Of a stretch of 64,000 nt of DNA, positions 21,546 to 50,345 are shown in pieces. The stretch comes from a virus, in IMG/VR virus record IMGVR_UViG_3300036828_001020, positions 5,180 to 69,179 of that record. The stretch is one strand, 5' to 3'. Positions within the stretch are counted from its first letter, which is position 1. Every line of letters begins with the position of its first letter. The position numbers were made by a program, and so were the translations under genes. The notes under the pieces were generated by a model. That model searched no databases and was not told the DNA's origin. It worked only from the letters and a program-made list of their open reading frames with translations.

Positions 21546-21561
21546 TGTTTCACGTGAAACA
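21546..21561. other. Perfect bacterial parS site
   Basis: TGTTTCACGTGAAACA, exact 16-bp palindrome, intergenic. Confidence 0.85.
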
Positions 21562-21586
21562 GTGCGCACCAGTTGCGGGGGGCAAC

Positions 21587-22051
21587 ATGCAATACACGAT
21601 GATCCAGGCGGCCAAGGCGGCTGGTCTATCTAAATCGACGGTCACCCGGGCGGTCAAAAGCGGTAGGCTTTCCGCCACCCAGAACGAGCTCGGCGTGATG
21701 GTGATCGATGCCGCGGAACTCCATCGGGTCTATCCGCCAGTGACGCAGCGCAATGGTGCAGACGAGGAGCCGCCTGGTGCAGCCGGGCGAATTTGGACCG
21801 GTGCGCACCAGGTCGATCCCGCCCTCGAAGCCCTGTTGCGCGAGAGATCAGAGCGCATCGCCGAACTCAGTGCGCGCCTCGAGGAGCAAGACGCGACGAT
21901 TCGGGCCGAGCGCACCGTGACCGCCGAGACGATCCACGATTTGCGAGCCCGGCTGGATGCCGAGCAGGCCGAACGCCGCGAGCTGACGCTGACCTTGCGG
22001 ATGATCGGAGCCCCCGCCAAGCGGCGCTGGTGGCGCCTCTGGCGCCCCTAA
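21587..22051 (+). CDS. HTH plus coiled-coil protein (plasmid-type)
   Basis: QAAKAAGLSKSTVTRAVKSGRLSA..IDAAELHRVYP; coiled coil; RRWWRLW tail. Confidence 0.75.
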   Translation: MQYTMIQAAKAAGLSKSTVTRAVKSGRLSATQNELGVMVIDAAELHRVYPPVTQRNGADEEPPGAAGRIWTGAHQVDPALEALLRERSERIAELSARLEEQDATIRAERTVTAETIHDLRARLDAEQAERRELTLTLRMIGAPAKRRWWRLWRP

Positions 22052-22542
22052 CCCTCGTCGCGGATTACCCAGGTAATCGAGCGCAGCAGCGCTCCTGTGT
22101 CGATCAGCGGCGTCGCATCGGCCGGGGTCATCGCTTTGCGCCGGTAGCTGCTCCCCGGCGTGCGGCGTCGTCTTCGGGCCACTGTAGCGGGCGCCAGGGG
22201 CGGTGGGATGCCGGCCTGGATCGTCGCCTGCACCGAGTTGACAGCGATGATGCCGGCGCGGCCCAAGGCGGTGTCGACCGCCGCCAAGTCGCCGGCAAAC
22301 GCGGCTTGCCCGGCCTTGCGCAATTCCGCCGAGATCGCCGGCATCGCGGCCTGGACCCCAGGGGTCAGAAACGGCCGGGCAGGGATATTGCGCGCCGGCG
22401 AGCCAAATTCGTGGATATACCCCAAGGCGGCATTGCCGATCGGGTCGCCCGAACGCGGGTTCTTTTCTTGCGGAATGCCGATCAGCAGCCGCTTGCGGGC
22501 GAGCGCCTCGATTGCGCGGGCAATGTCGTCAGGACCCGGCAC
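22048..22542 (-). CDS. Neck / virion morphogenesis protein
   Basis: LGYIHEFGSP..IPARPFL..PPLAPAT..PLIDTG.L; probable GTG start at 22542. Confidence 0.8.
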   Translation of the reverse strand: MPGPDDIARAIEALARKRLLIGIPQEKNPRSGDPIGNAALGYIHEFGSPARNIPARPFLTPGVQAAMPAISAELRKAGQAAFAGDLAAVDTALGRAGIIAVNSVQATIQAGIPPPLAPATVARRRRRTPGSSYRRKAMTPADATPLIDTGALLRSITWVIRDEG

Positions 22543-22652
22543 AGCAGCGCCTGCCGATCGGGTGCCTGCGCCGGCGGCGCCCCCGGATGATCCGCCGCCG
22601 CAGCGCTGACCGGCGGCCGCGCAGCCGCCCCCCTCTTTGGCGCAACCTGGGC

Positions 22653-23195
22653 TCAGAGAGCACGATACGCCAGCCCGGATGTGCCATAGGGGTAATATTT
22701 GAGCCCCGAGACCCCGTAGAATGGGCGATAGCGGAAGAGGCGATATTGCGCGGTGGCCTGCCAGAAGCTGAGGCCATATTGGGTCTGCGCATACCATGCG
22801 GCACTCGCCGGCAGACCGTCGAGCCCGCCATACCCGACGCTGACCGGGCCCACCGCCTTGTTGGTCATGCGGCCAGGCGTCCCGGCCCCGGTGCCCGGCG
22901 GGCCGCCGATCTGGGCCAGGTGCGCGGTCATCATGTAGAGCAAGCGCTCGCGCTCGCCGCCGACCGAGGCGTCACAGACCGGGCTCGAGCAGCTGTTATC
23001 CAGGTAGATTGTCGCGTCGTAGAACAGCTCCTGTGCCAGTGCGGGTGAGACGGTGATCGTCCCCGACCCGGCAAATTCCGAGTAACGCGTGCTCCACCGG
23101 CCATAGTCGAATTGCACAACGCAATCGTCGACCGGCGGCACCGGGATCAGCGGCGGGCACTGGCACGGGGTGCAGCCACAGGCGCAGGTGCTCAC
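22653..23195 (-). CDS. Head-tail connector (DUF4054-like)
   Basis: RERLLYMMTAHLA..GPVSV..WYAQTQYGLSFWQATAQYR. Confidence 0.85.
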   Translation of the reverse strand: MSTCACGCTPCQCPPLIPVPPVDDCVVQFDYGRWSTRYSEFAGSGTITVSPALAQELFYDATIYLDNSCSSPVCDASVGGERERLLYMMTAHLAQIGGPPGTGAGTPGRMTNKAVGPVSVGYGGLDGLPASAAWYAQTQYGLSFWQATAQYRLFRYRPFYGVSGLKYYPYGTSGLAYRAL

Positions 23196-23650
23196 GTGTT
23201 GGTTGCCTTCTCGATCCGCACGGCGCGTGTGCCGATCGCCCGGACCCGCTCATCGGAGGCCAGGTCATCCGGGTCGATCGGCTCCATCAGGGTCTTGATC
23301 CCGGCGAGCTCCCGAGCCTGATCGCGCGCCTTGTTGGGATCTTCGTAGGCAAAGATCAGCTTGTTGCGGACCAGTGGAAGATCGGCGTTCTGCCGCATCC
23401 ATTCCTCGAAAAAGTCGCGATCCACATTGTGGGTCAGGCCAAAGCTATGAGTGATTTCAAAACCAGGCTGCACGCCAAACGCGACACGGTTGCCATTGAG
23501 CACCACGGTGCGCCCATCGGGGTGCGGGCGGGCGATCTTGACCTCGCGCATCCCGCCGCCCATCACCGGCTCCATGGTGTCGACCATCTGCCATAATTTG
23601 AGGATCAGCCCGTTTGGCAGCTTACAGGCAACCGTAACCGTGCCGGCCAT
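23192..23650 (-). CDS. Conserved head-associated protein
   Basis: TVTVACKLPNGL..FGLTHNVDRDFFEEW; directly downstream of the capsid gene. Confidence 0.75.
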   Translation of the reverse strand: MAGTVTVACKLPNGLILKLWQMVDTMEPVMGGGMREVKIARPHPDGRTVVLNGNRVAFGVQPGFEITHSFGLTHNVDRDFFEEWMRQNADLPLVRNKLIFAYEDPNKARDQARELAGIKTLMEPIDPDDLASDERVRAIGTRAVRIEKATNT

Positions 23651-23661
23651 TGGCGCTGGTC

Positions 23662-24771
23662 CTAGATCCCGAGCATCGAAGAGATCGCCATCGGCATGCG
23701 GATTATCGCACCCCAGGTGCCACCGACGATCTTCTGCTTGAACGAGCTCATCGCCCGGATGATCGGATGCGACCGCATCTTCTCATTAAACGCGCAATAT
23801 CCAGTGTCCTGCCCCTCGACGCGCTCGGCGATGAGCTGGATCAGGTTGCCGACGGTGCCATTGCCCTGCGGGTTTTGCGGTGACCGTATGGCGTATTGCA
23901 CAGCCGTTTCGATGCGCAGATTAGCGAATTCGTCCTCGATCATCTTGCGGGCGATCAGACCAAATTGGTTGACAAACCCGAGCGCCACGGCACTCGCCGG
24001 ATCGAGCGCCAGACACATCGGGGTTTCGCGATCGACCAGCCCCGCGGTTTGTTTTACCAGCTGACTAAACAACGCCAGGATGTCGTTATAGACCTCGTTG
24101 GCGGTCGCGTTGGGCGCCCCGGTCGGGGTGAACCACGCATTGGCATTGCCGCCCGCTTTGGTCGTCGGGGTCAGCGACGCGCTCAATGCTGGATCGTTGA
24201 GCAAACCGTAGTTCTGCAATCCGGCTAGCCCAAAGAAATACGTCAGGTTGCTGAATTTGTTGAGCACCAAGGCGGCTGCCTGATCGAGCTCACTTACCCA
24301 GTTGATCCGCCCGAGCCCGGCGCGCTCGAGTTCCAGATCGCCGTATTCTTTAGTCGTCTGAAACAGGTAGCTTTGGCGTTGGGGCCAATTTGTATTGGCT
24401 CCACTGTGCCCGCCTTCGTTGTAATCGCCGTAGGTCGTGACCTCGCCGACATGCTCGACGACCGGGAACATGATCGTCTGGTCGAGCCAGGTGCCTTTGC
24501 GCACCTCGCCAAAAATCACCGCCGCCTTGTTTGGAGCGAACAAGATCTTGTAGACCGCCGGGTCGGTCAGCAGGGTGAGCATGAAAGGCACCGCCGAGTT
24601 GATCCCGGTGGTCAACGCCGGCATCGCATCACGCGCCATCCGATAATCGTGTTTGAACTCCTCCGGCACATAGCTGGTCGGCGGGTCCATGCCTTCGGCA
24701 AATGAGACGCCGAGCGCCTCAAACCGCGCCCGGTCAGCCTGCCAGGCCGTCCGTGCTTCCATCAAATTCAT
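23662..24771 (-). CDS. Major capsid protein (DUF2184 / Bcep781-like)
   Basis: GEVRKGTW..GEVTTYGDY..RQSYLFQT..YFFGLAGLQNYGLLNDP..EKMRSH..GTWGAIIR. Confidence 0.92.
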   Translation of the reverse strand: MNLMEARTAWQADRARFEALGVSFAEGMDPPTSYVPEEFKHDYRMARDAMPALTTGINSAVPFMLTLLTDPAVYKILFAPNKAAVIFGEVRKGTWLDQTIMFPVVEHVGEVTTYGDYNEGGHSGANTNWPQRQSYLFQTTKEYGDLELERAGLGRINWVSELDQAAALVLNKFSNLTYFFGLAGLQNYGLLNDPALSASLTPTTKAGGNANAWFTPTGAPNATANEVYNDILALFSQLVKQTAGLVDRETPMCLALDPASAVALGFVNQFGLIARKMIEDEFANLRIETAVQYAIRSPQNPQGNGTVGNLIQLIAERVEGQDTGYCAFNEKMRSHPIIRAMSSFKQKIVGGTWGAIIRMPMAISSMLGI

Positions 24772-24786
24772 GGTGGGTTCCTCATT

Positions 24787-24812
24787 AAAAAACCCCGCCG
24801 CAGCGGGGTTGC
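24787..24812 (-). terminator. Intrinsic terminator-like hairpin upstream of the capsid gene
   Basis: AACCCCGC-tgcg-GCGGGGTT followed by a T-run on the minus strand. Confidence 0.6.
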
Positions 24813-24828
24813 CATTAGGCGGCCGCGG

Positions 24829-25374
24829 TTAAACCGTACCGATCGGCCCCACGCTGACCGAGGTGGTTCTGACCAATTCGCCGGTCAGACCGTTGCTGAC
24901 CGCGCGCCAGCGCGTCTCGATCGACCCCGCCACAGTGGCCGCCGCAGCGGCAAAGCTCACCGTGCCAGTGGTAAGATTGGCAAAGGCTTTCTGCCCGATC
25001 GTCGCCGCCCCGGCCCCCGAGTTCAGCATCCAGAACCCGCCCGAATCCATCAGGGTCACACCCATGCCCGCGGGGATCACCATGCCAAACTCGCCCAGAT
25101 ACGCGGTGATCAGCCCCTGCTGCTCGCGATGGACAAACCCGGTAGGTTGCCCGGCACCCGTATTGTTGACGTAGATTGGCCCGGTCGAGGGGTCGACTCC
25201 GGTGGTGGTGTCCCACCACCCAAAGCACCCGATCGTCACCCCACTGGCTCCGGCGCGCAGGGCGCCCGGACCGGCATCGACCGATGATCTCGGGTTGGTA
25301 TCGCAGAAATCTCCACTTACTGCGGGCGCCGGCTGCGTGGTGACAAGCCGCTGCATGCCTTGAGATACCGCCAT
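24829..25374 (-). CDS. Capsid cement / decoration protein
   Basis: QPAPAVSGDF..NPR..GFVHREQQGLIT.YL..GGFW. Confidence 0.8.
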   Translation of the reverse strand: MAVSQGMQRLVTTQPAPAVSGDFCDTNPRSSVDAGPGALRAGASGVTIGCFGWWDTTTGVDPSTGPIYVNNTGAGQPTGFVHREQQGLITAYLGEFGMVIPAGMGVTLMDSGGFWMLNSGAGAATIGQKAFANLTTGTVSFAAAAATVAGSIETRWRAVSNGLTGELVRTTSVSVGPIGTV

Positions 25375-25380
25375 GACTGG

Positions 25381-25818
25381 TTACCTCCTTCTGCTCGGTG
25401 GTTTGGCGCGCGAGTGCGCCGCGCGCGCCGGGCCGCCCCCATCATCCTCCTCGTCCTCGTCTTCCTCGGCAGGCTCGGGCTCAGGCTCGGGCTCCTCCGC
25501 GGGCTCTTCGACCGGGGTCGGTGGTGTTTCGACCGGCAGCGGTGGCACGGGAGTCTCGGGATGGGGCTCCGACGCGGACGTCGGACCTGCTGCGGCGTCG
25601 TGCAGCCGCCGCGAATGTTCGGGGCTGACGATCGCCATCAGCAGGTCACATGCGTGGCTGTATTCGTCGCTGGTCAGACCGGTCGGCAGTGGCTCTACCG
25701 GCGGCTTGTTGACCATCTCCTCGCGTTGGTCGGGTGGGGCCAGCAAGTACAGCAGCTCGTCGATCCGCGAGTGTGTTATGCCGCCACCTTCGGAAAACGC
25801 TCGGTGAACCTCGCTCAT
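25381..25818 (-). CDS. Acidic Pro-rich hypothetical protein
   Basis: GGGAG SD; located in the head operon. Confidence 0.55.
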   Translation of the reverse strand: MSEVHRAFSEGGGITHSRIDELLYLLAPPDQREEMVNKPPVEPLPTGLTSDEYSHACDLLMAIVSPEHSRRLHDAAAGPTSASEPHPETPVPPLPVETPPTPVEEPAEEPEPEPEPAEEDEDEEDDGGGPARAAHSRAKPPSRRR

Positions 25819-25832
25819 GGGCCTGGCTCCCT

Positions 25833-27479
25833 TTAAACTTGCCGAATGTGTTTGGTTTCGGGGAAGCGCTCGGCAAAGGATTTGAGCGCCGCGGCATCCA
25901 TCGCTACTGGGGCTGATCCCAGCTGTGGAGCGCCGGCTTTGGGCTGGACCGCCAGCAATGCTGGATAGGCGCTCGGATGAATCGCCGCCGGGTCGACCCC
26001 GCGCATGCGCAGCGCCTGGGCGTAGACCTGATCCTTGCTGTCAAAGGCTTGGGTCAGCTCGCCGACATAAGGGAAGACCTCGCGCTCGGCCTCGCGGATT
26101 TCCCGTTGCGTGCGCGCCGCAGCGATTTGTGCCGCGCGGACCGCAGCGGCGATCGCCGCATCCATCGCGCCCTTGGTCACCAGGTCAGGTTGTGGGTTTT
26201 TAGTCTCGTCGGCGCTCGGGATGATCGAACGCCTATCCTGTGCGTCCCAGGCCGCATCGGCCGCCTCGTCGTCGTCCTCGCGTTTCTTCTTTTCTTCATC
26301 GGTCTCGTCACGGCCCAGCCGGCGCGCCGCGTCGCGAGCACGGATCGCTTTGATGTCCTGCGCTTTCTCCTCCGGGGGACAGTCTGGGTCCTGATCCTGG
26401 TTGCCCATCGGTACCGCACTGTTCGGCGGCAGCATCGGCGGTTCATCAACAATCCCGCCATTCCCGGTGCCGGCCAGCACCGTTTCGATCAGCGGCAGGA
26501 TTTCGTCGATATCGGCGTCCTGGGCGATCCGCTTGCCGGTCAGCGCCCGTTTGAGGGCGTCCTTCATGCTCATGTTAATCACCTCCGGTTGCATGGGTGG
26601 TTTGGCGTCGCCGATCACGACATCGTGGCCGGCACGGCCCTCGGCGACAGCGGCCACATGGTTGCCGACGATGTTCGTCATGATTCCGTCGTAGCGCTGG
26701 CCCTCGTAGACGCCCGGCGTCATCACCGGCTGGTAGCGATAGGCGCAGCTGAGCTCACGCTTCTCGCCGCTCTCGATCGCGTCGATCGCCGCTTGCGGCC
26801 AGAACACCAGCGAGTTTTTCAGGTATGGCGGCTCAAACCGGGCGTGCGTGCCGGTCGAGCCGATCACCAGTTCGGGCGGATGATCCTGCGCGCTGATCGG
26901 CACGTGCTCGCTGAGGATCGGCAGATTGTTAAAAGTCGCGGTCCCCTTGGCGATCTCGTCGGGGTGGCGCAGCAGCTGATAGGTCTTTTCCGGATCGAGC
27001 CCGAGGCTTTCCCAATCGGGGATCTCCTCGCCTTTGTAGGGGTTGACCGTGGCCTTGCTGATATTCGCCTCCTCGACGTGCAGCCGGCCGTCGGCGTCCT
27101 TTGAGCGCACCGAGTTCCGGTCGAGTGCCATGTCGTTGGCGGCGGTCAATTCGCGGGTCAGCAGCGGTCGGCTGCCCTCGGCATCGCAGTCCGCGTCTGC
27201 GCTGTGCTCCTCCTCGCCGCCTTCCTCGCCGACCCAGGCGAGCAGACCGCGCAGGAAGTTTTTGAGGGTGTCTAAAAAGGCCCCGGTGGTTTGGTCGTGG
27301 CCCTCGCCAACACTCTCGACAAACTCTTTACCGACCGACTGCGGAATGCCGAGCGTGGAGTGCCCGCTTGCCGCGGCATGCATCGCGCGGCGCTGCGGCT
27401 CCGAGGTCGGCGGATCGGTGGCGAGTTCATTATCGCCGCCGGCGCCAACCCCGGAAATCGGCCCTCCCACCTCTGGCAT
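25833..27479 (-). CDS. Prohead protease / scaffold (DUF2213-like)
   Basis: DGRLHV..ISKATVNPY.G.EIP..KRELSCAYRY..GNHVA.V.EGRAG. Confidence 0.9.
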   Translation of the reverse strand: MPEVGGPISGVGAGGDNELATDPPTSEPQRRAMHAAASGHSTLGIPQSVGKEFVESVGEGHDQTTGAFLDTLKNFLRGLLAWVGEEGGEEEHSADADCDAEGSRPLLTRELTAANDMALDRNSVRSKDADGRLHVEEANISKATVNPYKGEEIPDWESLGLDPEKTYQLLRHPDEIAKGTATFNNLPILSEHVPISAQDHPPELVIGSTGTHARFEPPYLKNSLVFWPQAAIDAIESGEKRELSCAYRYQPVMTPGVYEGQRYDGIMTNIVGNHVAAVAEGRAGHDVVIGDAKPPMQPEVINMSMKDALKRALTGKRIAQDADIDEILPLIETVLAGTGNGGIVDEPPMLPPNSAVPMGNQDQDPDCPPEEKAQDIKAIRARDAARRLGRDETDEEKKKREDDDEAADAAWDAQDRRSIIPSADETKNPQPDLVTKGAMDAAIAAAVRAAQIAAARTQREIREAEREVFPYVGELTQAFDSKDQVYAQALRMRGVDPAAIHPSAYPALLAVQPKAGAPQLGSAPVAMDAAALKSFAERFPETKHIRQV

Positions 27480-27529
27480 AGATACCTCCCTGCTCCTGGC
27501 ATGGATTACCTCCCTTGAAAGCCCCGCCG

Positions 27530-27907
27530 ATGCGCTACCCGATGCCGAATTACCCTTGCGAGTTTGAAATCCCGGATGCCTGGCTCGCCGAGGCCGGCAT
27601 CAATGGTTTCACTCGAACCATGCCGGCGTACCGATCGACCCCGGCGGCGGTGCCGGTGTCATTGCGCGAGATCGAGCCGCCGTATCGCACGCCAGAAAAA
27701 GATTGGCGCGGTTTCGACCGCGGCCGACTGATCTCCGTTCTGAACGGCATTGCGACGGGGGCAGAGATCGAGCCGGTGCCGCTGCTCAAACTACCGCCCG
27801 GTGATTTCCTGCCGTCGCCGTACGGCTATCGAGTGCGTAATGGATTTCATCGGTTCTATGCGTCGATCGCAGCGGGCTTCGAGTGCTTGCCGGCGGAGAT
27901 CTCATGA
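27530..27907 (+). CDS. Stand-alone ParB/Srx-fold protein
   Basis: IEPV..YRVRNGFHRFYAS..G (GxHR motif). Confidence 0.65.
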   Translation: MRYPMPNYPCEFEIPDAWLAEAGINGFTRTMPAYRSTPAAVPVSLREIEPPYRTPEKDWRGFDRGRLISVLNGIATGAEIEPVPLLKLPPGDFLPSPYGYRVRNGFHRFYASIAAGFECLPAEIS

Positions 27908-28245: not shown

Positions 28246-28249
28246 GCTG

Positions 28250-28538: not shown

Positions 28539-28539
28539 A

Positions 28540-34811: not shown

Positions 34812-34997
34812 TCACAGCAAACCGACCAGCAGCAGCACGAGCACGACCAACGCCACGACGCCGAGCAAGCCGGCGGGGTAATAACCCCATGTTGCGGGAG
34901 CCTCGTTGTAGGGCCAATGCGGCAATCCGGCGATGATCAGCACCACCAGCACAATCAAGAGAATAATTCCGGCGGGCGATAAATAGTGCTGCGCCAT
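34812..34997 (-). CDS. DUF3309-family small membrane protein
   Basis: LPHWPY..WGYYPAG.LG..LVLLLVG. Confidence 0.75.
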   Translation of the reverse strand: MAQHYLSPAGIILLIVLVVLIIAGLPHWPYNEAPATWGYYPAGLLGVVALVVLVLLLVGLL

Positions 34998-35829: not shown

Positions 35830-36030
35830 ATGACACCCCAAGAACTGCGCGCCTGGCGTCTCTCACTCGGCTGGTCGCAGCCGCAAGCGGCCACCGCACT
35901 TGGTATGGCGACGCGCTCCTATAGGTACCTCGAGGCCGGCGAAACCAGCACCCGGGCGAGCCGCCGCGAAGTGCCGGTTGCGATCGAGCTGGCAACCCAT
36001 GAACTCACGCGCCGCCACAAAGAAAGTTAA
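35830..36030 (+). CDS. XRE-family HTH protein
   Basis: ELRAWRLSLGWSQPQAATALG..YLEAG. Confidence 0.8.
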   Translation: MTPQELRAWRLSLGWSQPQAATALGMATRSYRYLEAGETSTRASRREVPVAIELATHELTRRHKES

Positions 36031-36041
36031 TTCCCAGTTAA
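36027..36041. promoter_or_regulatory. Putative CtrA binding site
   Basis: TTAA-ttcccag-TTAA; reads TTAA-N7-TTAAC on the minus strand. Confidence 0.5.
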
Positions 36042-36094: not shown

Positions 36095-36418
36095 ATGTTC
36101 GACGCAATCATTGCCGGTATAGCTTTAGGCTTGGCAATCCTCGCCCTACTGCTGCTCTCGGGCTGCACCGCCCCGGTTCCCGGCTACACCTGGAATAAGA
36201 CCGCGGCCACCCAGGCCGATTTCGCCAGCGATAGCTTTGGGTGCAAGCAAACCGCGCGGGCGACCGTTCCCGGTGGCGGTGTGGCGGTCGGCGGGCTGGC
36301 GTTTGTCCTGATCGCCACCGCGGTGCGCGCCGAGAACACTCACAATGGCCAACAGCAAGTCTACAACGAGTGCATGGCGGCACTCGGCTACACCCCGACC
36401 CCGGCGGTCGCGCCATGA
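36095..36418 (+). CDS. Lipoprotein
   Basis: LSGC lipobox; W.K..DF..D..C and CM..LGY motifs. Confidence 0.75.
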   Translation: MFDAIIAGIALGLAILALLLLSGCTAPVPGYTWNKTAATQADFASDSFGCKQTARATVPGGGVAVGGLAFVLIATAVRAENTHNGQQQVYNECMAALGYTPTPAVAP

Positions 36419-36639
36419 TGGACGCGCCAACCACCGGTATGTTTTGGCTGGCGATCGGGTTATTCGCCAAAATCTTGCTGACCACGGCGGCCACCTTTGA
36501 CGGTGGCGCCGGGAGCGAGCCGCCCTATTCCTGCCGGCTCCTCTACGACGAGCAAAAGAAGTGCGCGTTTGGCAGCTGCGACACGCGGGTCCTCGAGCGG
36601 CTGCGCAACGAGTGTCTGCGCGATGGCGGGCGGCCATGA
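36415..36639 (+). CDS. Small secreted Cys-rich protein
   Basis: Hydrophobic N-terminus; C-x9-C-x4-C-x11-C. Confidence 0.6.
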   Translation: MMDAPTTGMFWLAIGLFAKILLTTAATFDGGAGSEPPYSCRLLYDEQKKCAFGSCDTRVLERLRNECLRDGGRP

Positions 36640-36812
36640 CTATGCCGCGTAGTCTCGACGGAACCTACTGCCACGCGTGCGGCGGCGAGATGTTCATCCA
36701 ACCGGATGGCGTGTCGCACCACGGCCGGCTTGGCGAGATAAGCCACGATGACGACGCCGACCACGTCGCGGTTGCCGATGTCGAGGGCGCCGCGCTGGGG
36801 GAGGGGTGCTGA
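36636..36812 (+). CDS. Small CxxC / His-rich protein
   Basis: CHACGG..SHH..DH. Confidence 0.5.
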   Translation: MTMPRSLDGTYCHACGGEMFIQPDGVSHHGRLGEISHDDDADHVAVADVEGAALGEGC

Positions 36813-37078
36813 TGGGCTATCATCAAATGCCCGATCTCGAGACCCTGGCGGGTGAGTTACCCGATCCACTCCAGCGATGGACGGCACGGCGCAAGGCGGC
36901 AGTGGTCGCGGCGATCACGCTGCAGCGGATCAGCCGCGAGGAGGCGTGCCGCCGTTATCAGGTGACCGAGGAGGAATTAACGGACTGGATCGCCCGGCTT
37001 GAGCAGCATGGCGTCCGCGGGTTGCGGACCACGCGGCTCCAGCAATTCCGACCAGTCGCAAAGGCTGACTTAGCATGA
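36812..37078 (+). CDS. sciP: SciP-like CtrA inhibitor (DUF1153)
   Basis: LP..QRWTARRKAAVVAA..ISREEACRRYQVTEEEL..W..HGVRGLRTTRLQQFR matches the SciP pattern over its whole length. Confidence 0.85.
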   Translation: MGYHQMPDLETLAGELPDPLQRWTARRKAAVVAAITLQRISREEACRRYQVTEEELTDWIARLEQHGVRGLRTTRLQQFRPVAKADLA

Positions 37079-37245
37079 GCAACGACATGGTCGACATCGC
37101 GACCGCGGCCACCAAAGCCGACGTTCATAGAGCGCTGGCCGAGCTGCGCCTCGACCTGCTCAAATGGAAGGTGGTGCAAACCATGGTGATCATCACCGCG
37201 CTCGGCGGGTTGATCATCTTGCTGCATTTCGGGACTAAGCCATGA
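37075..37245 (+). CDS. Small coiled-coil plus TM protein (DUF1640-like)
   Basis: ATKADV..LAELRLDLLKW followed by a hydrophobic tail. Confidence 0.55.
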   Translation: MSNDMVDIATAATKADVHRALAELRLDLLKWKVVQTMVIITALGGLIILLHFGTKP

Positions 37246-37844
37246 CCGACGACAAGATCCAGCGCCTGCCGATCGCCAGGGATGAGCTCGACGCGACCTT
37301 GCGCGCGACGCTGGCGCGCGATGAGATGACCCGCATCCAACTCGGGGAAGGTCCCGAAGCCATCATCGTCGCCGATGCCTACCCGCGGCGGCAATGCGGG
37401 CAATGCACATTTTGTTGCACCGCGGCCGGGGTCAACGAGCTCGAAAAGCTGCCGATGAAGCGCTGCCAACATCTGCGCGACGGCGGCTGCGGGATTTACC
37501 CGGATCGCCCCTCGAGCTGCGCCAAATTCTCTTGCGGCTGGCTGATCGGCAATTTCGACGAGCGCTTCCGGCCCGACAAGATCGGTGCCTACGTCGCATT
37601 TTTCATGACCGAGGAGTTCGGCTTTTACGCGGTGGTGCAGATGATGACTGCCCGCGCCAAGCCCAAACGGATCGCGCAGATGATCAAGCGCCTGTTGGTG
37701 TGGGTGCCCGAGGTGCGTGTCGTTGTCGACGACGCGCACGGGACGATCTACCGGCATGACAAGCCGCCCTGCCGATTTATCAGGCTCGACCGCGAGCCCG
37801 GTGACTACGAGACGCTTATTTACCGACTGCTCGATCCACGATGA
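37242..37844 (+). CDS. YkgJ / UPF0153-like Cys-cluster protein
   Basis: CGQCTFCC..CQHL..CGIYPDRPSSC. Confidence 0.8.
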   Translation: MTDDKIQRLPIARDELDATLRATLARDEMTRIQLGEGPEAIIVADAYPRRQCGQCTFCCTAAGVNELEKLPMKRCQHLRDGGCGIYPDRPSSCAKFSCGWLIGNFDERFRPDKIGAYVAFFMTEEFGFYAVVQMMTARAKPKRIAQMIKRLLVWVPEVRVVVDDAHGTIYRHDKPPCRFIRLDREPGDYETLIYRLLDPR

Positions 37845-43638: not shown

Positions 43639-44217
43639 TCATTCCGCCGCCTCGGGGGTTTGTCCGCTTTCTTCACGGACGCGCACACCCAACTCGCGCG
43701 CCAATTCGTCCAGGTCGACATCGTTCTCAGGCGGCCCAAAGATGCGCCGTGTGCTCTGCTGCCAGCGCTCCTGCCAATGGCGCGCGAAGTCGCCGGCCGC
43801 GGTCGCCCAGGCGAGTGCCTCGGGAGTGCGCTCCCCATTGGGCAGCCGGTCCGGTCCCGCCCAGGCGATCCTGCGCAGCCTCTCGACCTCGTCGGCCTGC
43901 GACCACCAGAGCTTGCGCTCCTCATCGCTCAAGCCGGGCGGCGGCGTCATCGCGGCGCGTTCGGGTTGTTTGGGCTCCGGGTGCGCGCGGCGCCACATCG
44001 CTTCGGCCTGGCCAATCAAATACGGATCGAACCAGCGGCCTTCCTGGTCGATCGGCGATACTCGTTTGGCATCGTCCAGCACCACCCGGCGCCAGCCGTA
44101 ATCGTAGGCGTGATATTGCGAGCGCTCTGGATGGGTCAGCGCCGACCAGGAATAGCCGCCCGCCTTGAATTTCTGCTGGAGGCTCTCGCGGTGCTCCAGG
44201 CTCGGGAAGGTGCTCAT
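43639..44217 (-). CDS. Hypothetical protein
   Basis: ATGA coupling with the rep gene. Confidence 0.6.
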   Translation of the reverse strand: MSTFPSLEHRESLQQKFKAGGYSWSALTHPERSQYHAYDYGWRRVVLDDAKRVSPIDQEGRWFDPYLIGQAEAMWRRAHPEPKQPERAAMTPPPGLSDEERKLWWSQADEVERLRRIAWAGPDRLPNGERTPEALAWATAAGDFARHWQERWQQSTRRIFGPPENDVDLDELARELGVRVREESGQTPEAAE

Positions 44218-44936
44218 GGCGCGATCCCGCTCTGGATTTTCCACTCGCGCATGTCGTCCCACCGTTCCGACCGCATCCGGTGGTCGGTCTCGTCGAGCAT
44301 GCGCTGGGCAGCCGCGGGGTCGTCCCCGAGCATGGCGGCCCAGTAGGCCGCGAGACCCTCAAAGCGGCGGCGGGCTGTCAGAAAGCGGGCCAGTTTCTGG
44401 ACCAGCAGATCGCGCCGCTTCTTGCGCAGCGCTGGGCTGCTGGGCGGCCGCCACCGCCGCGGGGCAGTATTCCGGCTTAGAGGGGCGAAGGGTGTGCCAG
44501 GTCGGTGTTCAACCTTGATGCCAGCAAAGGGCGCATCGCGCCCATCTTCAGGATTCGTGTCCGTTTTTTCCTCTTTTCCCTTCGCGCGCGCGGCGTTAAG
44601 GGATTCAGACTTATCAACAGATTCTGAATCCTTTTTGGCTATGCCTTTCGTTCCAACGGTGGAGCAGCGCGCGACGCGATAGCCATCGGCGATCTGATAC
44701 ACGTTTGACTTGCTGCCGCCGCGGCAGTCGATCGTGATCGCGCCGCGAATTCGTAACTTTTTGAGCGCTCGATTGAGGGTCCCGATCGTCATGCGAGCGA
44801 CCAGCGCGAGTCGGCGCTGACCAGGCCAGCAGCGGCCGAATAAATCGGCGAAACGATGCAGTGCGGCGAGCGCTTTGAATTCTGTCGGATCGAGATCGAA
44901 AGCCGCGTCGTTAAGCTGGACAAACGGGAGCGTCAT
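44214..44936 (-). CDS. Putative replication initiator (N-terminal wHTH)
   Basis: LAALHRFAD..GRCWPGQRRLA..TLNRALKKL..G.I..SNVY. Confidence 0.7.
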   Translation of the reverse strand: MTLPFVQLNDAAFDLDPTEFKALAALHRFADLFGRCWPGQRRLALVARMTIGTLNRALKKLRIRGAITIDCRGGSKSNVYQIADGYRVARCSTVGTKGIAKKDSESVDKSESLNAARAKGKEEKTDTNPEDGRDAPFAGIKVEHRPGTPFAPLSRNTAPRRWRPPSSPALRKKRRDLLVQKLARFLTARRRFEGLAAYWAAMLGDDPAAAQRMLDETDHRMRSERWDDMREWKIQSGIAP

Positions 44937-45229
44937 GGCCGGCCCCCGCGCTGGAGCTCGCGCCAGGCGGCGGCGACCGCCTTGACGGCCTCGGTGACGG
45001 TCGGCGTCGAATATTCACAATCGACCGATCGGCCGATCTCGCGCGGGGTCATCCCATAGCCGAGCGCCCAGCAAACGTGCTCGAGTGCGACGTCGGAGGC
45101 CTCGGTGGCGGCCATGTCGGAAAATAATCGGGCGGCATCGGCGCGATTTTTCCGGCACCAATCGAGAAACGAATCAGCAACGACGAAGGGTGGAACAAAG
45201 CGGGTAACGCTAAGGTTTTCTAGGCTCAT
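44933..45229 (-). CDS. Hypothetical protein, translationally coupled to rep
   Basis: SD buried in hairpin 45230-45248. Confidence 0.6.
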   Translation of the reverse strand: MSLENLSVTRFVPPFVVADSFLDWCRKNRADAARLFSDMAATEASDVALEHVCWALGYGMTPREIGRSVDCEYSTPTVTEAVKAVAAAWRELQRGGRP

Positions 45230-45334
45230 CGGGTCCTCTCAGGACCCGCCTGAAAACCGCCGCTGGCAGGGGCTCTCAAATTAAATATTGGTGACGCTGC
45301 ATTTTTATGTTGCGGCGGCACCATATATTTCGGA

Positions 45335-45435
45335 GAGTCGCGGCTGTAACCGACGACTCACCGTGAGAGCCTCTGGTCAGGAGGGCATCAGACGGGTGGT
45401 TGAGAAGGCCCCTCGCCAAAGGGGCCTTCGGTTTA
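45335..45435 (+). ncRNA. Putative antisense RNA to the rep-operon leader
   Basis: TATATT -10-like box near 45324; 5' hairpin GAGTCG/CGACTC; terminal hairpin GAAGGCCCCT/AGGGGCCTTC. No ORF. Confidence 0.35.
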
Positions 45436-45539
45436 AGTGGGTTTAATCGATGTGACGTCCTTCCGGGACCGGGGCTGTAAAACCGGTCCCGGTTTCATTC
45501 TGGCTCGCACTCTTGGCGCCTGGCGAGTCAGAAATTCAG

Positions 45540-45954
45540 TTTTCCACAGCTCTTTTCGATTGACCGCTCGACGAGGCCTTCGCGCGGCGTTTGTCAAAAA
45601 ATAATGTTGGTGTGATCCGTTGCCGGCCATCTCGGCGGAAGGAAATATACTTATCCACAGAAATTCGCGTGCTAAGGCGGCCTTTTCAGCGTTGCTAAGG
45701 CGGCCTTTTCAGCGGCGCCCGAAAATTTATTGCGCGGGCCCGGTGATTTTCCGAGAATGCGCGCGGGTCGGAGAACCGCGGCACCGCCGCGGCAAAGGTC
45801 TCCCGGATCTCTCCGGCTTAGCCTGGCCTCCCCGGCTGCTCATGGTCGCGGGAGGCCTCTTTTTGCGAAGGCGAGCTTAGTGCCACCTGGTGCGGGCGCA
45901 GCGGCAGACCCCAGACCCGCAGCTGGGCCAGCATCTCGTCGACGCTGTGGATAA
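45540..45954. other. Putative replication origin with DnaA boxes and a 22-bp tandem repeat
   Basis: TTTTCCACA at 45540, TTATCCACA at 45651, TGTGGATAA at 45946; TGCTAAGGCGGCCTTTTCAGCG twice at 45670-45714. Confidence 0.5.
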
Positions 45955-46318
45955 CCCCGATCGCGGCGAACCCGCCCGAGGCGATCAGCAATGGGAACAT
46001 CTCTTCCTGACCGACGAGGATCCGTGGTGAGCCACGCTTGGTGCGGCCGATCCGGGTCTTTGAGAGCTGACCGCCGCGCCGCTTGACCTCGAGCCCCCAG
46101 GTGCCGTGGTAGAAAATGAAGATGTCGGGAAAGCCGCGCTTGAGCCCGACCTCGGCAAAGCGCGCGAATTGCTGCGGCGACAGCTGGGCCGCCCCGGCCG
46201 GGTAGCAGCACCACAACGCGGGTGGGAAGAGCAGCTTGTCGAGCGCCGAGCCGCAGGCCTTGTGAATGTCGAGCTCGTAGGGCTCGGGTGCTGTCAGCCG
46301 GAAGTGGCGACTAGCCAT
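45818..46318 (-). CDS. VRR-NUC-like PD-(D/E)XK nuclease
   Basis: GLKRGFPDI..LEVKRRGGQLS..Q..IHSVDE. Confidence 0.8.
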   Translation of the reverse strand: MASRHFRLTAPEPYELDIHKACGSALDKLLFPPALWCCYPAGAAQLSPQQFARFAEVGLKRGFPDIFIFYHGTWGLEVKRRGGQLSKTRIGRTKRGSPRILVGQEEMFPLLIASGGFAAIGVIHSVDEMLAQLRVWGLPLRPHQVALSSPSQKEASRDHEQPGRPG

Positions 46319-46493
46319 CTGCCGGTTCTTTGCTGGCGGCTGCTGCCTGGGCAGCCTTGGCGCAGATCTCGCAGCCCGGGCCTTCGCAGCACACCGAGAG
46401 GATCCCCAGACCAGGGACGCGGATGTCGTGCATGCGGCCGGCGAAGACCCGCGGCTCTCTGACGCTCGAGCGGCGCGGTGTGGGTTTCGGCAT
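46311..46493 (-). CDS. Small Cys-rich protein
   Basis: CCEGPGCEIC; SD present; overlaps the next gene. Confidence 0.5.
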   Translation of the reverse strand: MPKPTPRRSSVREPRVFAGRMHDIRVPGLGILSVCCEGPGCEICAKAAQAAAASKEPADG

Positions 46494-46909
46494 GGCAGCC
46501 CTCGCGGGGGGTCGAGGCTCGAAATCATTTTTAGGACAAAAGGCGAGCTTGTCAGCCGAAAAAATATTCCCGCCCGCCGCGAGTCGGCACCCACTAAATA
46601 TTGATTATTTCCAAAAATTGGCCCGGGAAATTCGCCGGTCTTCGCTACCCTGGCGGGTGTGTTGAAACTGCTGCCGGATTTCCGGCGGATCGGCTCGGGT
46701 CACTTTCCACAATTTTTTATTATGCGACAAATCCGGCAACCGCCGCGCGAGGTTAAATCAACCGGTGCAATATTGTGCCGGCACCGGGTCACCATCGCGT
46801 CACGGCACCTCGTTAATAATTAATCGGGTTGACGCAGGGGAGATTATGTCAGGAATATTACCCGGGACCGCTTCTCAGGAACGACAACAAAAAAGGGGGC
46901 GATCGGGGA

Positions 46910-47587
46910 GTGACCACGACGCGCAGTGGTGGCGGCACGTTCCGCCGCGTCGAGATGATCCGCGCCGAGCTTGGGATGTCGCCGACCGAGTTTGCCCGGG
47001 CGATCGGGCTGTCGCCGCAGCGCTATGCTCGGATGATGCGCGAGGGCTCGATGCCGCAGCTGATCAAATTGGCGGCGCATGGTTTGGCCGCCCGCCGCCG
47101 CTTTGAGCCCGACCAGACATTTTTGGTGCGGATCATTGGAGGGCTCCCCTCGGTGATGATGCTCCAGCAGCTGCACACGACGACGATCCGCGGCATGCTC
47201 TATGCGCTGGTGCCGCTCGTTCATAGCCTATCGGAAGCGGCCGAGCAGGCCGCCCCGGAAACGGTCGGCCAAACCCGCGACAGCCCCGCCGCCGGCTCGC
47301 GGCACAAGCAGATCATCGATCGTGTCGTCGGTCTGCTGCGCTCCCATCGTTGCGACGGGGGCGAGCAGCGGCCGGCCGAGCTGCTCGACGCGCTGGAGGC
47401 CGAGGGCGGCTGGTTTGACCAGGCTCAGCCGCGGGCTCAGCGGCTGACCTATTTGACCGGGATCTTGTGGCATGAGCAGCGCCGCCCCGATGCCCGGCTG
47501 GCCGTGCACCAGCGCGGTCACTATAGGTTGGCCAATGGCGAGCTCGCCGGCGACGACGACGATGACGACCTCAGCGAGGAGGACTAA
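46910..47587 (+). CDS. XRE HTH regulator with C-terminal wHTH-like domain
   Basis: IRAELGMSPTEFARAIGLS; C-terminal RGHYRL. Confidence 0.65.
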   Translation: MTTTRSGGGTFRRVEMIRAELGMSPTEFARAIGLSPQRYARMMREGSMPQLIKLAAHGLAARRRFEPDQTFLVRIIGGLPSVMMLQQLHTTTIRGMLYALVPLVHSLSEAAEQAAPETVGQTRDSPAAGSRHKQIIDRVVGLLRSHRCDGGEQRPAELLDALEAEGGWFDQAQPRAQRLTYLTGILWHEQRRPDARLAVHQRGHYRLANGELAGDDDDDDLSEED

Positions 47588-47599
47588 TGGGCGAGCTGG

Positions 47600-47827
47600 T
47601 CACCGCGGCGCTGGGCCCGTGGGAACATATCTGGAGTTGCCCCGATTGCGGCAAGCGCGATTGGCATTTTGGCCTTTCTCTGCCTTCCGCTGGTCGCCGA
47701 AGCGAGCGAGCGCCTCCCGCAGGCTTAACCGCAGCGCCAGATCGTCGTCTCGTGTCAGAACCTCAAGAATTCTGGCGATCTGCTCTCGCGTAAGCTGGAT
47801 TGAAACGCGCTTTCGTCTGCTGCTCAT
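47600..47827 (-). CDS. Hypothetical protein
   Basis: GGAGG SD. Confidence 0.45.
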   Translation of the reverse strand: MSSRRKRVSIQLTREQIARILEVLTRDDDLALRLSLREALARFGDQRKAEKGQNANRACRNRGNSRYVPTGPAPR

Positions 47828-48013
47828 CTCTCTGCCTCCAGCAAGCGGCGCAGCATTTCCTAGAGTTCGACCTTGGGGGCGTCGGTGACGGAGCCCCGAT
47901 CTTCGCCATTACGCCGTCGATGTAGGCGTTGAACTTCTCAAGTTCAGCCGCAAGCTTTTCGATGTAGCCGACTTTGGCGCCGGCGGGATGATCCAGCGGC
48001 CGCCCAAGCGCGA

Positions 48014-48796
48014 TTAAGCGGCTGGTCGGGGATCTGCGGGCGGCGGCGGTGGTGCGTCGTCGCGCAGATCAAAGATCAGCTTGGTTCGATCACCGGACGC
48101 CCGATCAATCAGCCAGGCCAGCTTCTCCTCCTCGCCGCTCGCGGCACTGTCGGCGCGGTTGGCATTGACGCGCTTCATGCCGACATGCAGCTCATACTGG
48201 CGGATCGTGCAGAAGCGGGCATAGACGCTGCGGCTCTTGCCGGGCACGCTGGCGTCAGGGAAGGCGACTATTCCATCGATCTTCTTGCCGCCGGCAAAGG
48301 TGAACAGCATCAGCTGGCCGTCGTCATCCTCGAGCTCGACGCCGGTTTCCTCGATGTCGGCATGGGCACAAAGATCACTCAGCGCTGTTTTGTCGGCCTC
48401 CGGCCGCAGATGCCATGCGAAATCGCTGTCGGCAGCTTCACGCATCCGCCCCAACAGCTCGCGAGCCTGGCGCTGCTCGCCGCCGGACAGCACGTCGATA
48501 TAGCCTGTCAAATCGTCGAGCATTGCGATCCGCGCGGCGGCGCGGGCCGCAGCCCCCTGCTCGTCATGGACCGCCCGCCAAGCGGAGCGCCAGAGCACTG
48601 TAAGCAGTTCGTCGGCAGCGTTAGCGACACCCCAAGTAATCGGATCGCCATGGGCCAGATCAAGAAACGAGGTGAGACCTTCCAGCGAAAAGCCGCCTCG
48701 ACCGTCCTTGCCTTTGATGTATTTCCGAACTTCGGTTTTGACCCGCGGCAATAGGCGGGTGGAATAGCTAGGTAGTCTGCCGCGGCCTCCGCTCAT
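48014..48796 (-). CDS. Hypothetical protein, partner of the ParB-like gene
   Basis: GGAG SD; overlaps the upstream ParB-N gene. Confidence 0.6.
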   Translation of the reverse strand: MSGGRGRLPSYSTRLLPRVKTEVRKYIKGKDGRGGFSLEGLTSFLDLAHGDPITWGVANAADELLTVLWRSAWRAVHDEQGAAARAAARIAMLDDLTGYIDVLSGGEQRQARELLGRMREAADSDFAWHLRPEADKTALSDLCAHADIEETGVELEDDDGQLMLFTFAGGKKIDGIVAFPDASVPGKSRSVYARFCTIRQYELHVGMKRVNANRADSAASGEEEKLAWLIDRASGDRTKLIFDLRDDAPPPPPADPRPAA

Positions 48797-49757
48797 GGTT
48801 TTTTCTCCGTGGAAATTTGATCGATTTGAGGATGTTGACTGCGTTTTGACCGGTGGCGATGCTCGCTGCCAGTTCTGCGACGCCGCCCTTGAAGTATTTT
48901 CGGAAGGCCTCATCGATTTCGGGATCGCCGAGCCAGTTCGGCACTTCGCAGACCAGCGGGGTATTGGTGATCGCGTCGCCTAGCCGAGCGTAATCGGCGA
49001 GCATCTGAAAGACTGTCTGGCGCTGCTGCTCCTGTTGTTTGTCGCTATCGGCGAGTAAGGTGCGGGCTTCTTCAAAGCTGATCTCGGCGCGATCGACTCG
49101 CTCGGCCATTTCAGGAGCCTTCTGACGCAACAGCGCCATGCCCTCGGTGCGCCACTCTTTTTGCCGCTTGCGCCCCTGCGCGGTTTTGTAGGCGGTATCG
49201 AGCGCTTGGCTGTTGGCCATGATCTCATCGACCAGCTCCGGCGCGTACTCGATGACCAGCTCGGCTTCGCTGATCCGCTGATGAGGAATGCCACCAGCGC
49301 GCGCCAGCCCGGAATGGCTGAACGGATTTTGGGGCGGCCCCTTACGGGCCTTCTCTGCCGGATCCGGCAGAGTAAAGGCCGAGGGTGCATCGCGCCGCAT
49401 CAACGCGAGCGTCATGGCGATCTGGCCGGTCGACATATGCCGGCGTGAGATGTTCTCCGAAATCGCCAACCGCACGATCTTGGTCAGGTCCTCGATGCGC
49501 TCAAAGCGCGGCTCTATCCCCGCGAGCTGGCACGCCCTAAATCGGCTGCGTCCGTCGATAATGCCCTCGACCACGTCCTCCTCGCTGATCATCTCGGCCA
49601 GCAAGATCGGATGTCGCAGCCCATTGGCTTTGATGTCCGCGGCCAGATCGGCGAGTTCGGGCTCGGTCATCATCGGGAACAGCGCGGCAATCGGATGCAC
49701 CGGCAGATCGGCGACCTCTGCCGGCGGCTCGGCTAACAACGCAGGCTGATCGTTCAT
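48768..49757 (-). CDS. ParB-N domain protein
   Basis: HPIAALFPMM..LAADIKANGLRHPI..IIDGRSRFRAC..SENISRRHMS.GQ. Confidence 0.85.
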   Translation of the reverse strand: MNDQPALLAEPPAEVADLPVHPIAALFPMMTEPELADLAADIKANGLRHPILLAEMISEEDVVEGIIDGRSRFRACQLAGIEPRFERIEDLTKIVRLAISENISRRHMSTGQIAMTLALMRRDAPSAFTLPDPAEKARKGPPQNPFSHSGLARAGGIPHQRISEAELVIEYAPELVDEIMANSQALDTAYKTAQGRKRQKEWRTEGMALLRQKAPEMAERVDRAEISFEEARTLLADSDKQQEQQRQTVFQMLADYARLGDAITNTPLVCEVPNWLGDPEIDEAFRKYFKGGVAELAASIATGQNAVNILKSIKFPRRKNHERRPRQTT

Positions 49758-49763
49758 CGCCGA

Positions 49764-50345
49764 TCACGCCACATGCGGCTGGCCGCCTTTGGGCCGGTTG
49801 CGGCTACCTGGCGGGCGGCCGCGCGGGCGTTTGCTGCCCGGTTCGGGAACCCGGCTCTGGGCCAGCATCTCGGCACCTTGGTGCCAGCCGCTATCCCACA
49901 CCTGATAGAGCAAGGTGCCGGGCGACCACGGGTTGCCATCGCGGACGTAGCCATGCAATCCGGCGGTGTGCCCGGCGTCGCTGACCCGGCGTCGCTGGTG
50001 CTCGCTGACCGCGGCGGTGTCGTGCCCGTTGGGCGCACCACCGGCCGGCGCCTCGGCCTCGGTGAAGATCGTGGTCTGAAAGCCGACGGGCTTCCCCAGC
50101 CACTCCATGTTGCGGCGAAATTCGGCGTCCTCGGCCTCGCGCATGTCGCCCGATTTTTCGGCCTCCTTGCGGGCGCGATCAAAGGGCCCGAGCAGAAACC
50201 CCGCCCCCTTGATGCGGGCGCGCAGATCCTTACGAGCACCAACCGCCTCGGCGACCAGCGCGTCGGCGGCGGCGTAGGCGTCGTAAAATTCGAGATAGGT
50301 AGAGCGAGTGACGTTGCCGCCACCGGATGAAGTTGGCTCTGGCAT
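49764..50345 (-). CDS. GapR (DUF2312)-like DNA-binding protein with AT-hook tail
   Basis: RKDLRARIKGAGF..REAEDAEF..WLG; C-terminal KRPRGRPPGSRNRPK. Confidence 0.55.
   Translation of the reverse strand: MPEPTSSGGGNVTRSTYLEFYDAYAAADALVAEAVGARKDLRARIKGAGFLLGPFDRARKEAEKSGDMREAEDAEFRRNMEWLGKPVGFQTTIFTEAEAPAGGAPNGHDTAAVSEHQRRRVSDAGHTAGLHGYVRDGNPWSPGTLLYQVWDSGWHQGAEMLAQSRVPEPGSKRPRGRPPGSRNRPKGGQPHVA

Follow-up and report, generated by a model that had tools for sequence, protein, structure and literature searches.

Several described systems share features with the phage genome analysed here. A ParA, ParB and parS of their own are encoded by plasmid prophages (P1 and N15, for example) and by mycobacteriophages with parABS systems. 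At Cori, the chromosomal origin of Caulobacter, CtrA boxes and GANTC sites accompany the DnaA boxes. For alphaproteobacterial phages, PMC9437464 describes CtrA boxes that regulate phage genes ("lytic deferment") as well as phage homologues of GcrA and CcrM, with phiCbK encoding a GcrA homologue. Orphan ParB-fold proteins are common on phages according to PMC12704722, ParB activators of phage thymidine dioxygenases are described in PMC13229309, and GapR genes of the Erythrobacter phages R34L1 and R34L2 in PMC12185513. Here we describe a window of 64,000 nucleotides (bases 5180-69179 of the 69,179-bp IMG/VR record IMGVR_UViG_3300036828_001020; coordinates below are window positions), in which a tailed phage carries a parS site of chromosomal type, DnaA boxes at its replication gene, a SciP-family gene, a remote GapR-like protein and an orphan ParB-family protein.

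A preliminary description had taken such parts as one joint system, through which the phage would persist as a mini-chromosome on host ParB and DnaA while dampening CtrA output. We found that the parts are real and that several exceed chance expectation. They are not one conserved unit, as parS lies in an island that the closest relative lacks and is patchy among the other relatives. The phage lineage acquires parts of the toolkit for alphaproteobacterial chromosomes time and again, and these behave as separate mobile modules. The reading we prefer, with a probability of about 0.5, is a tailed phage with several separately mobile parts that interface with the host chromosome, rather than one co-inherited system.

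Like the phiCbK-type phages, this alphaproteobacterial phage encodes a homologue of a protein that regulates the host cell cycle and has a CtrA-type site ahead of phage genes. Unlike them, its homologue is of SciP, an inhibitor of CtrA, it has one weak CtrA box rather than a cluster, and parS and ParB-like parts are added. As in P1 and N15, no integrase is present, DnaA boxes lie close to the rep gene and there is a site resembling a centromere, but ParA is absent, the ParB-like protein is without a ParA-binding motif, and parS has the consensus of a host chromosome. For comparison, 140 capsid relatives were confirmed in IMG/VR and 80 were kept. The whole-record set comprised 44 of these 80 capsid loci, namely all 36 whose contigs measure 40 kb or more and 8 shorter ones, which include two of the three closest relatives (L003 and L004).

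The parS site, its cassette and the orphan ParB-family protein

The features concerned are as follows.

17833-22047, plus strand: island of accessory genes, all on the plus strand, inserted between the tail and the neck genes; in the closest relative, G001, the genes on either side adjoin each other
21546-21561: parS, TGTTTCACGTGAAACA
21587-22051, plus strand: g30, a DNA-binding protein with HTH_17 (helix-turn-helix, HTH) and coiled coil; weak Pfam HTH_17 match and weak NCBIfam match to a plasmid-replication DNA-binding family
48768-49757, minus strand: P0003, an orphan ParB-family protein of 329 amino acids, with an N-terminal ParB/Srx-like domain and an HTH-like DNA-binding domain

The parS site agrees with the consensus at 16 of 16 positions and is a perfect palindrome of the chromosomal type. 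It is the sole match in the window at up to two and also at up to three mismatches, and 0 of 100 shuffled sequences gave a match, so that the perfect parS claimed in the preliminary description is both real and unique in the window. The 16-mer is identical to the perfect parS copy in all five alphaproteobacterial genomes with related prophages that were searched whole, which represent the likely host clade. Because the 16-mer equals the host centromere site, host ParB should load on the phage DNA; this step follows from sequence identity and is the one we hold most firmly. What comes after loading may be positioning or compaction, KorB-like silencing, or titration of ParB. The preliminary description assumed that host ParB must be the binder, but the phage also encodes an orphan ParB-family protein of its own, P0003.

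Titration could even be the main effect. Replicated to many copies with the phage genome, parS would then act as a decoy that soaks up ParB and, in Caulobacter-type cells, draws MipZ, PopZ and SMC loading; segregation and division would stall, and growth of the cell would continue to the benefit of the phage. In Caulobacter, segregation is disturbed by additional copies of parS, and the perfect 16-mer is the same as the few chromosomal copies of the host (2-3 per genome); the absence of a ParA partner and the recurrence of sites at non-homologous places in relatives are also consistent with a decoy. However, one site per genome would be a weak sink unless ParB spreads, and the co-occurrence of parS-like sites with phage ParB-like genes (5 of 7 records, see below) points to use by a phage protein. 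We consider this account improbable, the least probable of those discussed here.

The site sits 26 nucleotides (nt) upstream of the g30 start codon, and on sequence comparison parS and g30 form a small mobile cassette. In the closest viral homologue of g30 (L350, 50% identity), a 1-mismatch parS occurs at the identical 26-nt spacing, and DNA homology between the window and this locus is confined to 21520-21764. Because the homology spans only this block, arrival of the parS together with the neighboring MFS transporter gene was rejected. The g30 family is large (2784 matches); close relatives of g30 were found neither in IMG/VR with a single-protein query nor in a PDB sequence search. CGCAAC/GTTGCG motifs, often as inverted repeats, stand about 80 nt before the start codons of many g30-family genes (L350-L368 and L375) and are likely the family operator. 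The idea that g30 binds parS was set aside, since other g30-family genes carry CGCAAC/GTTGCG upstream and only the closest homologue has a parS-like site. As the distant g30 genes have this motif and not parS, g30 probably has its own operator, and parS would be a separate element of the cassette.

The cassette belongs to the 4.2-kb accessory island, which is missing from G001, as shown by its flanking genes, which adjoin each other there. The island genes g24-g29 are missing from all 80 related loci. An MFS_1 transporter gene (20190-21428, 412 amino acids, Pfam expectation value (E) 7e-24) also lies in the island and matches a PHROG of unassigned function as well. Perfect parS sites are found in at least 137 IMG/VR stretches; the 80 of them that were compared are mostly low in GC (median 42%) and contain zero homologues of g30, P0003, P0001, P0002, the MFS transporter or the ParB of the relative G021. 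Some IMG/VR "viral" contigs, such as L209, L249 and L265, have arrays of three to five perfect parS within 1 kb, and these may be fragments of plasmids or chromosomal origins, or phage-plasmids.

The ParB-family gene P0003 adjoins the GapR-like gene and was overlooked in the preliminary description. Its sequence scores are below the cut-offs for ParB_N (23.0 versus 26.3 bits) and TIGR00180 (33.3 versus 58.45 bits). The AlphaFold2 (AF2) model has a predicted local distance difference test (pLDDT) score of 89, and its top Foldseek matches are Spo0J, ParB, Noc and KorB (8qa8, 8qa9), over about 225 columns at E of about 1e-6; a different orientation of the domains keeps the template modeling scores low. 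A ParA-binding-like motif is present neither in P0003 nor in any of 50 members of the family, and on this ground, together with the model, P0003 belongs with the orphan ParB-fold proteins of phages described in PMC12704722. Like the orphan proteins of the ParB-CTPase fold, including KorB of RK2, P0003 combines the N-terminal domain with an HTH, has no ParA-binding motif or neighboring parA and resides on a mobile element; unlike them, it stays below the Pfam and TIGR cut-offs. It also differs from the ParB activators of phage thymidine dioxygenases (PMC13229309) in that it keeps a region like a DNA-binding domain. A parS-like site occurs within 10 kb in 6 of 80 viral loci of the P0003 family, and five control palindromes gave 0, 0, 0, 1 and 0.

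Replication region, SciP-family protein and GapR-like protein

Gene calls came from our own simple caller; it missed at least the genes at 44214-44936 and 35830-36030, which were added by hand. The features of this part are the following.

35830-36030, plus strand: small Xre-like HTH open reading frame (ORF), read from the sequence, whose stop codon lies within the CtrA-box-like site
36027-36041, plus strand: CtrA-box-like site, TTAATTCCCAGTTAA
36812-37078, plus strand: P0002, a SciP-family (DUF1153) protein of 88 amino acids, in a same-strand gene row at 36095-37844
44214-44936, minus strand: rep, a lambda-O-like replication initiator (phrog_270, E 1.4e-9; phrog_391, E 4.3e-6)
44598-44634: palindrome within rep (inverted repeat I8), centered on the 1-mismatch DnaA box 44611, which three GANTC sites flank, and adjoining a T-rich tract
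45230-45817: non-coding stretch (590 bp) upstream of the rep operon, with the DnaA boxes 45540 (1 mismatch) and 45651 (perfect)
45946-45954, minus strand: perfect DnaA box inside the ORF 45818-46318
49764-50345, minus strand: P0001, 193 amino acids, with a remote GapR-like N-terminal domain, an RMF-like domain and a C-terminal AT-hook, assigned by profile and model

The DnaA boxes near rep, as already reported in the preliminary description, held up well. Perfect boxes (TTATCCACA) lie at 45651 on the plus strand and 45946 on the minus strand, with 1-mismatch boxes at 45540 and 44611, so that 4 of the 8 matches in the window at up to one mismatch fall within 1.35 kb at rep. In 1000 dinucleotide shuffles, the mean number of perfect boxes was 0.108; two or more arose in 2 of the 1000, and a pair within 400 bp in none. 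The palindrome inside rep is a candidate origin by its sequence, and AT- and T-rich tracts are present in the region. A perfect 22-nt tandem repeat, of two copies only, directly follows the perfect box in the non-coding stretch (45670-45714), and two GC-rich hairpins with zero Rfam matches are found in the same stretch (45404-45429 and 45463-45492).

GANTC, the recognition site of CcrM, is rarer in the window than expected by a factor of about 5 (56 sites versus 264.8 +/- 15.5 from 100 dinucleotide shuffles), and 8 of the 56 gather within a single kilobase (44.5-45.5 kb), as a cluster at 44552-45525 at rep and the region upstream. With Cori, the locus shares DnaA-box-like sites and a local GANTC cluster at a replication gene; unlike Cori, it is without a CtrA box in the rep region, the sole one being 8-9 kb away at 36027, and its initiator is a phage O-like protein.

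The SciP family assignment of P0002 is clear, with 82.3 bits against Pfam DUF1153 (cut-off 23.5) and all 14 invariant columns of the family alignment shared. The CtrA-box-like site upstream of its gene row is the sole TTAA-N7-TTAA in the window.

The assignment of P0001 is more remote. GapR has a three-helix layout, and the model of P0001 predicts three N-terminal helices (14-47, 52-63 and 66-83) that match it, followed by an RMF-like helix pair. When the profile of the 48-member P0001 family was compared with 177,635 PDB sequences, four GapR chains came first (E 0.0066-0.031), aligned without gaps at positions 8-86, and RMF and an AT-hook peptide ranked after them. Direct searches gave less: Pfam GapR (PF10073) did not match P0001 at E up to 10, nor any of the six frames of the contig, and it matched 2 of the 48 family members (best E 0.0054). 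A Foldseek search with the P0001 model returned weak RMF matches only, without GapR, and an hhalign comparison of the family with the GapR protein of G001 was not significant (E 0.42). Thus P0001 resembles Caulobacter GapR (UPF0335) in its N-terminal 70-80 residues, which align gapless to GapR chains, and differs from it in length (193 amino acids), in the RMF-like and AT-hook fusion and in the missing Pfam match. The most fitting description is a fusion in which a remote GapR-like domain is followed by an RMF-like domain and an AT-hook, and the protein placed at 49764 in the preliminary description is GapR-like in this remote sense only.

Recurrence of the parts in related phages

Among the 44 whole-record relatives, parS-like sites (at most two mismatches) occur in 7, compared with 0 of 44 for the reversed control. 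ParB_N is present in 6 of the 44 and GapR in 4. Five of the seven records with a parS-like site also have ParB_N (Fisher p = 1.1e-4, not corrected for relatedness); the parS/ParB_N records fall into two or three lineages, so this p value overstates their independence. In G021, a full ParB (ParB_N and HTH_ParB) is encoded 2.4 kb from the parS-like site. In G021, G036 and G020, the site (L093 3680, L094 6744 and L095 4378, respectively) occupies one syntenic intergenic spot between two conserved unannotated genes, 2-3 kb from the ParB_N gene. G001 and G037 have the same 1-mismatch parS 16-mer in unrelated flanks.

G001, whose capsid is 80% identical, is the most informative relative. Within 2.2 kb it holds DUF1153, the 1-mismatch parS and a short P0003 homologue, and elsewhere it encodes a separate, clear GapR-domain protein (47 bits). 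Its rep region is not comparable with ours because G001 uses a different replication module, and neither a perfect DnaA box nor a TTAA-N7-TTAA was found in G001. The co-occurrence of the parts in relatives, proposed as a check in the preliminary description, is therefore partial: parS-like sites are enriched and G001 has SciP-like, GapR and parS-like parts, but the DnaA boxes and the CtrA box are missing there. As a separate observation, G001 also has a DNA-modification set, which the window lacks, consisting of a 632-amino-acid ParB_N-DUF5131 fusion (L085 7825-9720), a C5 cytosine methylase and a Mom-family protein.

Another view is that the parts are passengers with no joint function. The parS would have come with the HTH cassette, the boxes would be operators of a phage regulator, the CtrA box would be a chance match, and the SciP-, GapR- and ParB-like genes would act independently or not at all. 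The scatter of the parts over 29 kb and different modules speaks for this, as do their patchiness in relatives (DUF1153 in 1 of 44, GapR in 4, parS-like sites in 7), the statistical weakness of the CtrA box, the CACAG extension that the DnaA-like boxes share and the perfect parS sites of at least 137 IMG/VR stretches, the 80 compared being without homologues of the six query proteins. On the other side, all four kinds of part occur again in the closest relative, arranged differently there; parS-like sites exceed the controls in three sets (7 versus 0 in the relatives; 6 versus 0, 0, 0, 1 and 0 near P0003-family genes; and the perfect copy identical to that of hosts); and two perfect DnaA boxes within 400 bp were never seen in 1000 shuffles. 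We regard a set of mere passengers as distinctly unlikely.

On the preferred reading, that of separately mobile interface parts, these would plug into the host chromosome machinery during infection. The replication module, of which the anatomy is observed, consists of the O-like initiator, the origin-like palindrome inside its gene and the upstream region, with four DnaA-box-like sites; host DnaA would help initiation or its control there, and the GANTC pile-up could make the module sensitive to methylation state. P0002, a member of the SciP family by observation, would bind CtrA and shut off CtrA-activated division, flagellum and pili genes. The adjacent P0003 and P0001 would, as a pair, coat or structure DNA. 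At the host-type parS of the parS-HTH cassette, host ParB would load on the phage DNA, and the phage's own ParB-like P0003 may load on parS too.

Several observations weigh against this reading. DUF1153 occurs in only 1 of the 44 relatives, and the replication module with its boxes does not recur in G001, as described above. For rep itself, no close relatives were found in IMG/VR, no match in PLSDB and none in a PDB sequence search. The three strongest DnaA boxes (45540, 45651 and 45946) all carry the extended motif TTWTCCACAG, and owing to this common CACAG extension they could be sites of a phage protein rather than of DnaA. In the cassette, the parS mismatch of L350 is central, and overall identity across the shared block is no more than 80%, which makes the conserved site there a weak argument for selection; furthermore, a parS-like site accompanies only 1 of 24 viral loci of the g30 family and 0 of 4 metagenome loci. 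The P0003-family loci near a parS-like site are likewise few (6 of the 80), and P0003 itself lies 27 kb from parS.

Further points against it concern the CtrA branch. Against the NCBIfam SciP equivalog NF051866, P0002 scores 82.9 bits, below the cut-off of 100; 13 homologues scanned in the same way range from 81.6 to 124.9 bits, and 9 of them pass. The SciP homologue named in the preliminary description is accordingly a true member of the DUF1153/SciP family that falls short of the equivalog level. As for the CtrA box said to precede its operon, the site exists, but it is single, at least one TTAA-N7-TTAA arises in 7 of 100 shuffles, and it overlaps the stop codon of the small HTH ORF, 54 nt ahead of the ATG at 36095.

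Genome context, host clade and lifestyle

The ORFs cut at the two contig ends share their frame, and a scripted join gives one ORF of 1918 amino acids with zero internal stops. This ORF (contig 64860-69179 plus 1-1434; window 59681-64000 plus L001 1-1434) is fibre-like, with a Peptidase_S74 chaperone domain at the C-terminus. As a single ORF thus spans both ends, the phage genome is probably circular or circularly permuted and nearly whole (about 69 kb), as judged from the sequence. The circular genome of the preliminary description is supported by this ORF, but no overlap between the contig ends was found, and the IMG/VR entry is marked as linear, with a completeness of 93%.

Pfam and PHROG matches outline a structural block of a tailed phage, with terminase, portal, Mu-F-like protein, DUF2213, capsid, cement protein, neck, sheath-like DUF3383, tape-measure region, baseplate J and a giant fibre, and a lambdoid early region with the O-like initiator, exonuclease, RecT, a Cro/YdaS-like HTH and an HTH_3 protein. 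Three features of the early region are as follows.

46829-47587, plus strand: HTH_3 (Xre-type) regulator of 252 amino acids (Pfam HTH_3, E 1.4e-5), a possible repressor
51500-51733, minus strand: Cro/YdaS-like HTH regulator at a divergent early-gene junction (Pfam YdaS_toxin, E 4.6e-14; P22_Cro, E 3.4e-8)
52380-54749, plus strand: exonuclease and RecT recombination pair (Pfam, PHROG)

The HTH_3 gene is divergent from the gene at 45818-46594, and its protein has zero PDB-sequence or PHROG matches. Since the HTH_3 and Cro-like regulators are present, lack of a CI or repressor cannot be claimed; both were overlooked in the preliminary description, which had stated that CI is absent.

Among the remaining genes, a 235-amino-acid protein (57255-57962) has a terminal PEP-CTERM sorting motif (such exosortase-dependent signals belong to the host cell envelope and are unusual for a phage), and a small DUF3309 membrane-type protein (34812-34952) adjoins the terminase region, as it does in the relative G017 (L097 7627-7839). 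The window contains no tRNA genes and no Rfam families at gathering thresholds. A megablast of 30-50 kb against phage records returned nothing, and no GenBank phage is close, the terminase being less than 60% identical to any.

Bacterial genomes, for the most part alphaproteobacterial, contain 27 relatives of the capsid, with the best in Bosea (66%) and Xanthobacter (63%) and others in Rhodospirillaceae, Bradyrhizobium, Rhizobium, Caulobacteraceae and Acetobacteraceae. Five of the 27 genomes were searched whole for parS, namely two Bosea, a Xanthobacter, a Caulobacteraceae metagenome-assembled genome and one Bradyrhizobium. Each has 2-3 copies at up to one mismatch, mostly clustered within kilobases and one of them perfect, with 0 for the control, and 4 of the 5 have a homologue of P0002 (SciP) at 47-51% identity. 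No parS-like site lies within 10 kb of the capsid gene in the 27 prophage relatives. The host is probably an alphaproteobacterium of the Hyphomicrobiales or Caulobacterales kind.

As claimed in the preliminary description, integrase and ParA are missing, and this holds for the whole contig, itself 93% complete: six-frame searches of the 69,179 bp found no tyrosine integrase (PF00589), no resolvase or serine recombinase (PF00239) and no ParA-type ATPase AAA_31 (PF13614). The 5.2 kb of contig outside the window, where an integrase could have contradicted the idea of unintegrated persistence, is negative and has fibre-like and unannotated genes only. Among the relatives, a tyrosine integrase occurs in 6 of 44, and the 38 without one include 8 records with terminal repeats; 4 of 44 are classed as proviruses, and 0 of 44 have a ParA-type ATPase above the cut-off. 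By its proviruses and integrases, the group includes temperate members.

These data bear on the mini-chromosome, in which an extrachromosomal prophage would replicate from a DnaA-dependent origin at rep and be segregated by host ParA and ParB through parS; the SciP homologue would prevent a CtrA block of initiation. In its favor, integrase, resolvase and ParA are all absent from a contig that is probably closed, and parS equals the host centromere; the layout of rep, with its DnaA boxes, AT-rich tracts and short tandem repeat, resembles plasmid origins, and genes of the moron type (the MFS transporter and the PEP-CTERM protein), CI/Cro-like regulators and the temperate members of the group suit a temperate phage. 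However, ParA is absent from the relatives as well, there is a single parS in an accessory island missing from the closest relative, and a tandem repeat of two copies is not an iteron array. The lack of an integrase is the rule in the group, and the contig is rated linear and 93% complete. PLSDB contains no related alphaproteobacterial plasmid; capsid matches reach at most 46% identity and are enterobacterial records only. We consider the mini-chromosome unlikely, and the persistence proposed in the preliminary description is not supported. One of the PLSDB records, NZ_CP141750.1 (H26), is a 47.9-kb non-mobilizable E. coli "plasmid" with a capsid 46% identical; it may be a phage-plasmid whose head module is distantly related.

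A related proposal is that the phage, like a scattered set of its relatives, exploits the centromere machinery of the host. With an exact parS and without ParA, it would have host ParB, ParA and PopZ position and segregate its DNA, and so pass through cell divisions as an unintegrated carrier or plasmid, with SciP lowering CtrA output and a DnaA/CcrM-sensitive origin timing replication. We regard this as no more than tentative and, like the mini-chromosome, unlikely. Taken together, the evidence leaves room for several lifestyles, and the phage may be lytic, integrating or plasmid-like.

In the open-access literature we found no published phage SciP gene, no published host-type parS without ParA in phages and no published fusion of GapR-like, RMF-like and AT-hook parts. 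Three elements of this genome thus appear to be new: the phage-borne SciP homologue, the GapR-like/RMF-like/AT-hook fusion protein, and the host-identical parS without ParA in a mobile cassette, together with the recurrence of parS-like sites beside orphan ParB-like genes. If the parS is used, it would give a handle on the role of orphan phage ParB proteins and on the borrowing of a host centromere; if it is not, the genome would still be a useful catalogue of host-mimicking accessory parts.

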